Assembly: GCA_041489925.1 (NCBI GenBank)
Contig: JBGPSD010000005.1
Coordinates: forward strand, 1,581 to 65,580
Length of the DNA stretch: 64,000 nt
Origin: Candidatus Nanoarchaeia archaeon
GTDB lineage: Archaea; Nanobdellota; Nanobdellia; Woesearchaeales; ARS49
Reading direction: 5' to 3'
The notes below the pieces were generated by a model. It was not told where the DNA came from and did no database searches. It was given only the letters and a program-made list of their open reading frames with translations. A program made the translations under genes and the position numbers. Positions 35,304 to 37,047 of the stretch are shown here, one piece after another (the first letter of the stretch is position 1; every line of letters begins with the position of its first letter).

Positions 35304-36293
35304 ATGCAATCGCTTCCATTTGAGAGAAGAAGGGCAAAAATACTTGAGAAAAGGCACGCTGAAACAGACCCTGCAGTGGGGTGCTTTCCAGAGAAAAGGC
35401 CTGCTGATGTTCTTTTTGATTACGGCATTGTTAATTTGAACAAGCCAGCAGGACCGACAAGCCACCAGGTATCTGATTACCTGCAAAGAATCCTGCACAT
35501 TGAGAAAGCAGGGCACTCAGGAACATTAGACCCTGGTGTGACTGGCGTTCTTCCTGTTGCTCTCGGACGCGCAACAAGGATTGTGCAAATGCTTTTGACT
35601 GCTGGCAAGGAATATGTCGGAGTGATGCACCTGCACGACGAAGTGCCGACAAAAGAATTAGAAGCTGCAATCAAGAAGTTTACAGGCAAGATAATGCAAT
35701 TGCCGCCATTAAGGTCTGCAATCAAAAGGCAGTTAAGGCAAAGGGAAATTTATTATTTTGACGTTCTCGAAGTGAGCGGCAAGGACATTCTCTTCAAAGT
35801 CGGCTGCGAGGCAGGAACATACATAAGAAAACTCTGCCACGATTTGGGGCTGGCTTTGAAAACAGGAGCGCACATGGCAAAACTGCACCGCACAAAAGCA
35901 GGACCATTCACAGACGAGGATTATGTCACAATGCAGGATTTGGAAGACGCATACTGGTACTGGAAGAATGAAAACAATGACAAATTACTTCGCGCTTGCA
36001 TCAAGCCTGTTGAGTCAGGAGTTGCGCATCTGCCAAAAGTTTACGTGCAGGACTCAGCAGTTGACACAATCTGCCACGGAGCAACACTGAAAGTGCCTGG
36101 CATTGTAAAGCTCGACGCAGATGTTGCAAAAGGAGTCCATGTCGCGATAATGACGCTAAAATGCGAGCTGATTGCCCTTGGAGAAGCACAGCAAAGCGCA
36201 GAAGAAATCCTCAAAGCAGAACGCGGAGAAGCAGTAAAGACGCACAAAGTCTTCATGCTGCCAGGAACTTATCCGAAAAAAGCGGCGGAATAG
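35304..36293 (+). CDS. cbf5: tRNA/rRNA pseudouridine synthase Cbf5
   Basis: TruB catalytic motif HSGTLDPGVTGVLPV and a C-terminal PUA domain. Confidence 0.93.
   Translation: MQSLPFERRRAKILEKRHAETDPAVGCFPEKRPADVLFDYGIVNLNKPAGPTSHQVSDYLQRILHIEKAGHSGTLDPGVTGVLPVALGRATRIVQMLLTAGKEYVGVMHLHDEVPTKELEAAIKKFTGKIMQLPPLRSAIKRQLRQREIYYFDVLEVSGKDILFKVGCEAGTYIRKLCHDLGLALKTGAHMAKLHRTKAGPFTDEDYVTMQDLEDAYWYWKNENNDKLLRACIKPVESGVAHLPKVYVQDSAVDTICHGATLKVPGIVKLDADVAKGVHVAIMTLKCELIALGEAQQSAEEILKAERGEAVKTHKVFMLPGTYPKKAAE
36240..36275 (+). repeat. direct repeat, copy 1 (functional 3' end of cbf5)
   Basis: ACGCACAAAGTCTTCATGCTGCCAGGAACTTATCCG matches 36982-37017 at 33 of 36 positions. Confidence 0.85.
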
Positions 36294-36298
36294 TCTGC

Positions 36299-36724
36299 TC
36301 ATTCTGACCGGAATGGATTGACAACCTTAATCCCTGGAATCCTGCTGAAGTCCTTTTCGTTCTCTGTGTAAATCGTGAAGATTGAGTTCTCAAGCATTAC
36401 CGCGGCTATCATCGCGTCCCAGAACGGGATTTTATAGAGCTGCGCAAGGCTCATTGCGTATTCAACTGTGTTGTTGTCAGCAGGATAGCAGGGGAATTTC
36501 GCAAGCAAATCCTCTGCGAGCGCGGCAGCATCGCGGGCAGGGCGGTGCGCTTTTGAGGTGATGTTAACAAAGAACTCATTCACATTCTGCAATGCCAGGG
36601 CAAAATCCTGTTTGCCCAGTATTCCGCCTGCAACAATGCGCTTTGCAGTCTCGTGCTTATCTTTCTCAGCAGGGTCAAAGGCATAAACCAATATGTTTGA
36701 GTCAAGAAACGCCCTACCTTTCAT
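36299..36724 (-). CDS. vapC: PIN-domain toxin VapC
   Basis: N-terminal FLDSNILVYAF, later acidic residues, ~140 aa. 11-nt overlap with the upstream antitoxin. Confidence 0.85.
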   Translation of the reverse strand: MKGRAFLDSNILVYAFDPAEKDKHETAKRIVAGGILGKQDFALALQNVNEFFVNITSKAHRPARDAAALAEDLLAKFPCYPADNNTVEYAMSLAQLYKIPFWDAMIAAVMLENSIFTIYTENEKDFSRIPGIKVVNPFRSE

Positions 36725-36938
36725 GGAGCTCTTCCCTTGTGACGCGCTTTGCGCCGATTATTGTGGTCTCATCCATCCGCCTTAAGAGCCTTTCTGCGGC
36801 CTCGTCGCGCCCCTCTTTATCGTGCATATTCGCAACTGCCTCGGTAAGCTTTTTACCAAGCTTTCCCTTTCCCTTGCCTGCAGTTTTGCGAAGCCACTGC
36901 TCTGCCTCGTCTGAAATCGTGACAGTTATTGTTCCCAT
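36714..36938 (-). CDS. vapB: VapB-like antitoxin
   Basis: Trimmed to MGTITVTISDEAEQWLRK... 74 aa, overlapping vapC in typical type II TA arrangement. Confidence 0.6.
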   Translation of the reverse strand: MGTITVTISDEAEQWLRKTAGKGKGKLGKKLTEAVANMHDKEGRDEAAERLLRRMDETTIIGAKRVTREELHER

Positions 36939-36981
36939 ATGATGTACGTAGATGAAGCGATTATTTAAATATATCGCAGAA

Positions 36982-37047
36982 ACGCACAAAGTGTTCATGC
37001 TGACAGGGACTTATCCGGCAAAGGAAAAGCCAGCACAGAATTCTTAG
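36982..37047 (+). pseudogene. relic copy of the cbf5 3' end
   Basis: Reads THKVFMLTGTYPAKEKPAQNS-stop, versus the live end THKVFMLPGTYPKKAAE-stop. Confidence 0.7.

Follow-up and report, generated by a model that had tools for sequence, protein, structure and literature searches.

We analysed a 64,000-nt stretch of DNA from the archaeon Candidatus Nanoarchaeia (Woesearchaeales), hereinafter the window, which corresponds to positions 1581-65580 of contig 5 (C5) of a metagenome-assembled genome designated G000 (1.06 Mb, 25 contigs, 99% complete). The window contains an intact cbf5 gene, encoding the H/ACA pseudouridine synthase, which is followed by a putative vapBC toxin-antitoxin cassette and then by a second, relic copy of the cbf5 end. 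Comparison with relatives defines the cassette as an insertion, insertions of the same anatomy recur at other gene ends, and the two copies of a duplicated gene end appear to be separately evolved coding alleles. We propose that such insertions probably arise by Campbell-type homologous integration of circular DNA from relatives, composed of a gene end and a cassette. The cbf5 locus is organised as follows (window coordinates).

35304-36293, forward strand: cbf5, intact, the target gene (Pfam DKCLD, TruB_N, TruB_C_2 and PUA)
36240-36280, forward strand: cbf5 end, live copy of the duplicated stretch (core 36240-36275, THKVFMLPGTYP; the tail, KKAAE-stop, ends at 36293)
36299-36724, reverse strand: vapC, PIN-domain toxin, convergent to cbf5 (Pfam PF01850, 4.3e-11)
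36714-36938, reverse strand: putative vapB antitoxin, 74 aa, with an 11-nt overlap with vapC; the name reflects only its place in the operon and its size
36957-36977, reverse strand: near-palindrome GCGATTATTTAAATATATCGC, read from the sequence; its TTTAAATA box precedes the vapB ATG by ~23 nt
36982-37047, forward strand: relic cbf5 end, of which 36982-37022 repeats the live copy, followed by its own stop (…YPAKEKPAQNS-stop)

The original prediction, made from the letters of the window, stated that the last ~12 codons of cbf5 occur twice and that the second copy reads in frame to its own stop. Repeat search, self-BLAST and shuffled controls agree on the first point. Specifically, the direct repeat formed by 36240-36280 and 36982-37022 covers 41 nt with 88% identity and a spacing of 742, and its core is identical at 33 of 36 positions. 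Self-BLAST of the whole genome recovers it as a 36-nt match of 91.7% identity (E=2e-5), so the repeat is significant genome-wide, a point on which the prediction had made itself depend. Local alignment of the cbf5 end to 4.6 kb of downstream DNA gives a score of 57, and none of 30 shuffled queries exceeds 26. The second point is borne out as well: the relic copy reads in frame as THKVFMLTGTYPAKEKPAQNS-stop, ending at 37047. No further cbf5 relic scored above shuffled controls downstream in G000 or in the relative G001, and an Rfam scan of 35000-38500 gave no match.

The 0.7-kb insert between the repeat copies contains only the cbf5 tail and stop, vapC and the 74-aa open reading frame (ORF), and the vapC stop lies 5 nt from the cbf5 stop. 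The predicted content, vapC and vapB alone and convergent to cbf5, stands for the two genes and for the toxin with its PIN match in Pfam; the vapB label, however, rests on position, and the 74-aa ORF matches no family in Pfam or NCBIfam. The matches of vapC to the NCBIfam VapC models are weak and below cut-offs. Acidic residues D8, E50, D103 and E121 can be read from its sequence, and the protein thus combines the PIN domain with the conserved acidic residues of a VapBC toxin. The near-palindrome with its TATA-containing box is identical in two relatives, G004 and L144, and is probably the cassette's own promoter/operator; because it lies upstream of the 74-aa ORF, the unit seems to carry its own promoter. 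The closest VapC homologues (67-68% identity) are convergent to an Lhr helicase gene, and no flanking repeats were found around the closest homologues in these other contexts.

cbf5 orthologues are present in 39 of 41 relatives. Examination of cbf5 loci, as the original prediction had suggested, identified empty sites in the genus relatives G002, G003 and G006 and in the metagenome contig L058. There, cbf5 is followed by 40-90 nt, a 112-114-aa ORF and then a 605-aa BatA-like gene. Because of these empty sites, vapBC is an insertion, and the state that would have spoken against it, vapBC in all relatives with no duplicated segment, does not exist. The insertion is at the gene end, as predicted, but its site is just after cbf5 rather than in the 3' end of the gene, and the duplication ran through the stop codon.

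The vapBC cassette and the relic are common to G000, G004, L057 and L144, four independent assemblies from different samples. Cbf5 of G004 is 98% identical to that of G000. L144, which was found via its 70%-identical VapC, is colinear with G000 from cbf5 through vapC and vapB to the relic, with 80.7% DNA identity over 2.3 kb; the insertion thus predates ~19% nucleotide divergence and is old. In a scan of about 50 cbf5 loci, taken from relatives and metagenomes, only the lineage of G000, G004 and L057 had the relic; L144, which was reached through VapC, adds to these. This survey rejects the relic as a family-wide feature of cbf5.

The relics of G004, L057 and L144 are homologous to that of G000. 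The relic tail of L144 (YPEKSADL-stop) is recognisably homologous to the live tail (YPKKAAE-stop), indicating that the original duplication extended through the stop codon and over at least 57 nt. The odd tail of the G000 relic is a decayed version of the duplicated cbf5 tail. The difference between the two tails (KKAAE-stop and AKEKPAQNS-stop) was considered as proof of a foreign end and dropped, since L144 shows the decayed homologue. Both L144 copies read CTGGC where both G000 copies read CAGG(A/G), a difference common to both copies of each genome that may reflect gene conversion between them or constraint on the relic.

The spot downstream of cbf5 is a hotspot, with different cargo in different relatives.

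G007 (L006 2488-3300): convergent AbiEii/DUF6036-like nucleotidyltransferase pair, 67 aa and 180 aa
G001 (L051 416-2331; G001:C8): 195-aa ORF, ribbon-helix-helix (RHH) gene, methyltransferase gene and putative restriction gene
L059: two convergent ORFs
G004 (L052 4985-5659; G004:C2 ~133985-134659): additional cargo, a 224-aa ORF inside the cbf5 relic tail

In G001, a 402-aa N4/N6 DNA methyltransferase and a convergent 236-aa putative restriction gene accompany the RHH gene, and no cbf5 relic or repeat is detectable around this restriction-modification (R-M) pair. The 224-aa ORF of G004 has no Pfam match and a sequence that looks methyltransferase-like; from its position, the cbf5 relic itself may have served as a landing site in G004. 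Behind this ORF lies a possible third partial cbf5 fragment (TTCATGCTGG…), which is too short for significance. Behind the nucleotidyltransferase pair of G007 are two short strings, one like the G000-type relic tail (…gcaccagaattcctga) and one like the empty-site-type cbf5 end (cacaaactttataa), which may be layered relics.

The footprint is not restricted to cbf5. A genome search for other duplicated gene ends, also suggested in the original prediction, yielded two more clear cases in G000, cases B and C. Case B, at the end of a DUF357 gene in the window, had been noticed before and is real: 56194-56228 matches 56681-56715 at 33 of 35 positions (C5 57774-57808 and 58261-58295).

56685-57038, reverse strand: DUF357 gene, the target of case B (Pfam PF04010, 2e-23); live end 56681-56715, stop TAG
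56285-56698, forward strand: cassette B, a single ORF (137 aa, family unknown) that is convergent to DUF357 and that G004 lacks
56194-56228, reverse strand: relic of the DUF357 end with a TGA stop; matches the live end of the G004 gene at 31/31 positions

The cassette-B protein has one distant homologue among 5.8 billion proteins, encoded between H+-PPase and ferredoxin genes, and no flanking repeats were found at that locus. The region downstream of DUF357 is also a hotspot, with cargo that differs between relatives. Downstream of the relic, 54760-56190 (C5 56340-57770) is a 1.4-kb G000-specific segment with three small ORFs convergent to DUF357, of which C5 56801-57049 resembles RelE/ParE on visual inspection; the corresponding region of G004 consists of 520 nt of unrelated sequence. 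In case C, C1 66246-66282 and 66748-66784 bracket a 149-aa ORF. The structure is common to G000 and G004, the site is empty in G001 and G007, and in alignment the relatives' gene ends match the relic.

A possible further case involves lspA. A copy of its end (C17 ~10117-10146, WHAFRKE-stop) has three differences, all synonymous, and lies 959 nt from the real lspA end; we treat it as possible only, because it matches at 24 of 30 positions inside a nested G000-specific 1.1-kb segment. At C17 9459-10146, a Doc gene (Fic motif) and an RHH gene end flush against this 24-30-nt copy of the lspA 3' end.

To place these cases in a genome-wide frame, the whole of G004 was compared with G000. The two genomes align over 926 kb at ~92% identity (92-96% range) and differ by 75 simple lineage-specific indels of 200-6000 nt. 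Eleven of the 75 have a local repeat score of at least 25 or a 20-81-nt overlap on the empty allele (threshold, at least 20 nt), and nine, with flanking duplicates of 24-95 nt, are left once two paralogous-gene cases are set aside. Flanking repeats scoring at least 40, against a null of at most 22, are found in six indels, or five without a case in a repeat-protein region. The repeat-flanked indels have repeats of 25-95 nt and inserts of 0.4-1.6 kb that carry one to four genes. Inserts are convergent to the target gene in 5/8 events and co-directional in 3/8; convergent orientation is thus no rule. Besides the 75 indels (0.2-6 kb), the two genomes show many segment-for-segment substitutions, and together these differences amount to a very high flux of accessory genes for 1-Mb genomes.

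The differences between live and relic copies define the history of the duplicated ends. In eight live/relic pairs (309 coding nt), 46 differences fall on codon positions 1, 2 and 3 in the ratio 4/7/35, that is, 35 of the 46 at third positions. At the codon level, 36 are synonymous and 8 nonsynonymous (binomial P=3.6e-9). One of the events, ev4, has 12 differences in 51 nt, all of them synonymous, so that both copies encode KYETFTIPNEIFYVIRK. In addition, relics keep their stop at the same place, often as another stop codon (TAG/TGA, TAA/TGA). The third-position bias and the kept stops, where a drifting non-coding relic would differ, indicate two coding alleles of one gene end, each with an evolutionary history of its own. 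To judge from these patterns, the copies evolved as coding ends in different lineages and were then joined, rather than duplicated in situ.

Comparison of both copies with the allele of the sister genome distinguishes native from foreign parts in several events.

ev1, live copy (G000 C1 16842-16938; the relic is at 17851-17944): equal to the sister allele left of GAAGAGGG, foreign to the right
ev1, relic: foreign in the left two-thirds; equal to the sister allele on the right, continuing into the native flank
ev2: live copy foreign; relic identical to the sister allele and flank (73/73)
ev5 and case B: live copy with foreign tail or stop; relic native
ev6: live copy native through the stop; relic foreign

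The position of the crossover therefore varies by event and is found at the left edge, in the middle or at the right edge of the repeat. Read against the sister allele, ev1 has the clean pattern of a reciprocal crossover. A single reciprocal crossover with a circular homologous copy explains ev1, ev2, ev5, case B and ev6, with a crossover point that differs by event, whereas a one-sided anchor with an illegitimate joint covers the native-relic cases only. As a class, then, the events support the original claim that the incoming DNA brought its own copy of the target gene's end, through synonymous differences, kept stops, and sister alleles that match one copy or a left/right hybrid of the two.

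No dedicated machinery was identified. The repeats of the eight events share no motif or k-mer beyond chance and no hairpin, and their eight inserts have no terminal inverted repeats. Integrase searches covered tyrosine (PF00589) and serine (PF00239) recombinases in G000 and PF00589 alone in G004; neither genome has a match to PF00589, and G000, the only genome searched for PF00239, has none to that family either. The original description of a ~0.7-kb unit without integrase is therefore accurate, and its suggestion to look for recombinases elsewhere in the genome gave a negative answer in G000. A tyrosine recombinase is encoded by G002 and G006, the sole matches in the genus. Inserts have a GC content of 0.35-0.44, with 0.47 for the genome; the vapBC insert (0.49) is the exception. 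As a separate observation, neither near-complete genome (G000, G004) has a Phage_integrase match, and both therefore lack a XerA-type dimer-resolution recombinase.

Measured against known systems, the eight events have neither the IntI and nearby attI of integrons nor an attC-type inverted repeat or shared end architecture. They also differ from DNA transposons and miniature inverted-repeat elements: terminal inverted repeats are absent, the duplications are long and variable, and the inserts are single-copy in self-BLAST. With no shared motif, hairpin or terminal inverted repeat, the integron and transposon readings were rejected. The anatomy is closer to that of integrase-dependent elements, in that the flanking repeats are derived from the target and a replacement end is present; a cognate integrase is missing from the chromosomes of G000 and G004, and so are a common core and a fixed crossover.

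We propose the following sequence of events. A circular DNA from a related archaeon would have brought in the cassette together with another allele of the final ~40-60 nt of cbf5. A single recombination with the resident cbf5 end, as in Campbell-type insertion-duplication, would have produced an intact hybrid cbf5, the cassette and, bordering the former downstream DNA, a further hybrid end, the relic. In this way a self-contained vapBC unit (promoter, antitoxin and PIN toxin) would have been added directly behind cbf5 in the ancestor of G000, G004, L057 and L144. The recombination was most likely ordinary homologous recombination on a handle of 25-95 nt. Gene ends would make suitable handles, since no other conserved sequence lies closer to a place where an insertion does no damage, and a homologous segment that includes the stop codon would leave the target gene intact. 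Short, diverged repeats would survive because long repeats would quickly loop the insert out. A circular intermediate, host recombination of the RadA type and relatives as donors are the probable ingredients, and we infer that the old cbf5 event had the same origin as the younger events, which are better resolved. Indirect evidence comes from its anatomy, which is shared with them, from two synonymous differences among its three, and from a relic that reads in frame to a stop. The cassette-type mechanism targeting gene 3' ends that was originally suggested is thus upheld in part: the footprint recurs, but the targeting is best explained by homology and selection, with no dedicated recombinase.

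Other routes to such a footprint can be weighed on the same evidence. A gene 3' end in direct repeat, with a replacement end supplied by the element, is the classic attL/attR signature of a tyrosine or serine integrase, which could have acted in trans from a virus, a plasmid or a larger island, the units being CIME-like att-flanked elements that lack an integrase of their own, or remnants of larger integrated elements. The hotspots with varied cargo downstream of cbf5 and DUF357, and the tyrosine recombinase of the genus members G002 and G006, fit this explanation. We nevertheless consider it unlikely: no tyrosine recombinase is encoded by G000 or G004, the genomes with polymorphic events, and no serine recombinase by G000, the one genome searched for it; repeats of 25-95 nt lack a common core, with crossovers from left edge to right edge; at least eight target genes would each need their own att specificity; and inserts of 0.4-1.6 kb contain no integrase remnants. 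The native relics and foreign live ends of ev2, ev5 and case B are also what would be expected if the gene end anchored a linear donor, the far end joined just upstream by homology-facilitated illegitimate recombination, and the resident end was pushed downstream as a wholly native relic. This route, C-terminal displacement, has been proposed for Rhs and type VI secretion system (T6SS) effector-immunity arrays with orphaned 3' regions (PMC5361080). It does not predict the ev1 relic, of which the left two-thirds are foreign, or ev6, in which the relic is foreign and the live end native, and the illegitimate joint would have to fall repeatedly 25-95 nt upstream of the anchor. We judge it to be of the same low probability as an integrase in trans.

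Duplication of a long target in situ at the time of insertion, for example by filling in of staggered breaks, with later divergence of the copies, would give a structure like that of bacterial R-M insertions with 30-400-bp target duplications (PMC2853133), and several of the repeats measure 35-37 nt. A decaying relic should mutate evenly, however, while here 35 of 46 differences are at third positions and alternative stops are kept; moreover, the live copy of ev2 differs from the sister allele to which its relic is identical, and ev1 is a left/right hybrid. In-situ duplication is therefore very unlikely. Chance similarity, or an assembly chimera of two strain alleles, must be considered because all genomes are metagenome-assembled and the structures were read from assemblies. 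The repeat score is far above shuffled controls, the cbf5 structure is present in four independent assemblies from different samples and locus C in two, making this the most improbable of the explanations.

Several points count against homologous integration of a circle, the reading that we prefer. About 65 of the 75 indels have no duplication, and integration of this kind would be a minority route. At cbf5 itself there are only three differences (two synonymous) and no close empty-site sister, so native and foreign copies are indistinguishable there. All genomes compared are metagenome-assembled genomes (MAGs), and several events come from one assembly each. Neither a circular form nor an excised allele was observed, and the model does not explain how the first unit of gene end and cassette originated in any lineage. 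Homologues of vapC and of the cassette-B gene occur elsewhere without flanking repeats, which leaves movement between loci unsupported. Finally, an integrase from a virus or plasmid outside the assemblies could have acted.

Among known systems, integrative elements that enter gene 3' ends and their integrase-less derivatives, such as the cis-mobilizable elements (CIMEs) of Streptococcus thermophilus related to ICESt1/ICESt3 at fda, and the integrated elements of archaea that target tRNA genes, keep their target intact with a replacement 3' end. The insertions described here share with such elements the intact target gene, attL/attR-like direct repeats and hotspots with cargo that varies by strain; they differ in having no integrase in cis or in the genome, no common core, a variable repeat length and crossover, and one to four genes. 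Campbell-type insertion-duplication of non-replicating circles is a laboratory construct in bacterial and archaeal genetics, in which, as here, a single crossover duplicates a segment around the insert and leaves the gene intact if the segment holds its end. To our knowledge, natural gain of accessory genes through Campbell-type handles of 25-95 nt has not been described for archaea. The units also resemble integron cassettes, which hold one or two genes, frequently a toxin-antitoxin pair, are promoter-poor or self-contained and are added at a fixed site; here, in contrast, there is no IntI, attC hairpin or shared attI, and the gene end differs from cassette to cassette.

Insertion with long target duplication is known for bacterial R-M genes with direct repeats of >30 bp (Nobusato 2000; Furuta, Abe & Kobayashi 2010, PMC2853133). 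The repeat is single at the empty site and sometimes overlaps a gene 3' end, as do 46-bp repeats in H. influenzae; a life cycle via the repeats was proposed, the mechanism was left open, and no archaeal case passed the screen (PMC2853133). That screen defined an insert of <20 kb, without mobility genes, with a direct repeat of >30 bp that is single-copy at a related empty site. The cbf5 locus has this structure (36-41-nt repeat, 0.7-kb insert, empty sites in G002, G003 and G006), as do locus C, ev1, ev2 and ev4. R-M cargo is absent from it: cbf5 is followed by vapBC, and the R-M pair of G001 at the same spot has no detectable repeat. The two classes are thus alike in their small units without mobility genes and in their >30-bp direct repeats that occur once at the empty site. 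They differ in cargo, which here comprises vapBC, methyltransferase-like and unknown genes, and in the nature of the repeats, which are read there as target duplications and here as separately evolved alleles, with one reciprocal-crossover signature.

C-terminal displacement with orphan arrays is the proposed outcome of homology-facilitated illegitimate recombination in Rhs, contact-dependent inhibition (CDI) and T6SS effector-immunity systems (Kirchberger 2017, PMC5361080). In both settings a conserved upstream coding stretch is the anchor, old 3' pieces are kept downstream and no integrase takes part. The displaced piece in those systems, however, is a functional toxin tip with its immunity gene, under selection on the toxin system. 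Here an unrelated housekeeping gene supplies its end as the duplicated piece, and the foreign origin of some relics is in keeping with a reciprocal and not a one-sided event.

Other features were noted in the window and the genome. The reverse-strand gene at 37498-37839, downstream of the cbf5 relic, encodes a secreted protein of 113 aa in which Pfam recognises a Kazal-type serine-protease-inhibitor domain (1.3e-9), an unusual find in an archaeon. On either side of it lies a small ORF (37163-37501 and 37979-38332); the two are paralogous, and their family, which has no annotation, is located ahead of the BatA-like gene in every relative. On contig C10, two tRNA-Gln genes (2894-3045 and 4742-4915) are each followed, after 40-70 nt, by their own 25-33-nt 3'-end duplicate, with a third partial 3'-end copy 0.8 kb further on (C10 5714-5744). 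At C8 23665-30376, six paralogous genes (185-550 aa) are arrayed in tandem; every one of them starts MKYASL…, their stop and start codons overlap, and the junction repeats of 38-98 nt are up to 98% identical; the region spans 17 kb in G000 and 8 kb in G004.

A broader scheme is more tentative, and we hold it to be possible rather than probable. In Woesearchaeota, and perhaps in other small-genome, element-poor archaea, accessory genes may travel by a shuttle that needs no integrase: units consisting of a handle, a cassette and a second handle would loop out, pass to relatives and re-enter the same gene end by RadA-type recombination over 25-95 nt of 80-100% identity. A gene that acquires a short piece of the 3' end of a conserved neighbour would become such a unit, and selfish cargo, for example toxin-antitoxin pairs, would aid its persistence. 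If the shuttle operates, it would represent a general, previously unrecognised mode of mobility without an element-encoded enzyme, and would explain part of the indel flux between G000 and G004.

Although the genomes of DPANN archaea are tiny and contain few mobile elements that can be recognised, the sister genomes compared here are set apart by dozens of small gene insertions. If homologous integration at gene ends is correct, host recombination together with a short conserved gene end would help to explain how defence, toxin-antitoxin and surface genes are gained. Bacterial insertion with long target duplication would thereby be extended to archaea, with mechanistic evidence that is new relative to the original descriptions, namely separately evolved alleles and a reciprocal-crossover signature. 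Short in-frame relics of gene ends could then be used as markers of recent horizontal acquisitions in MAGs.

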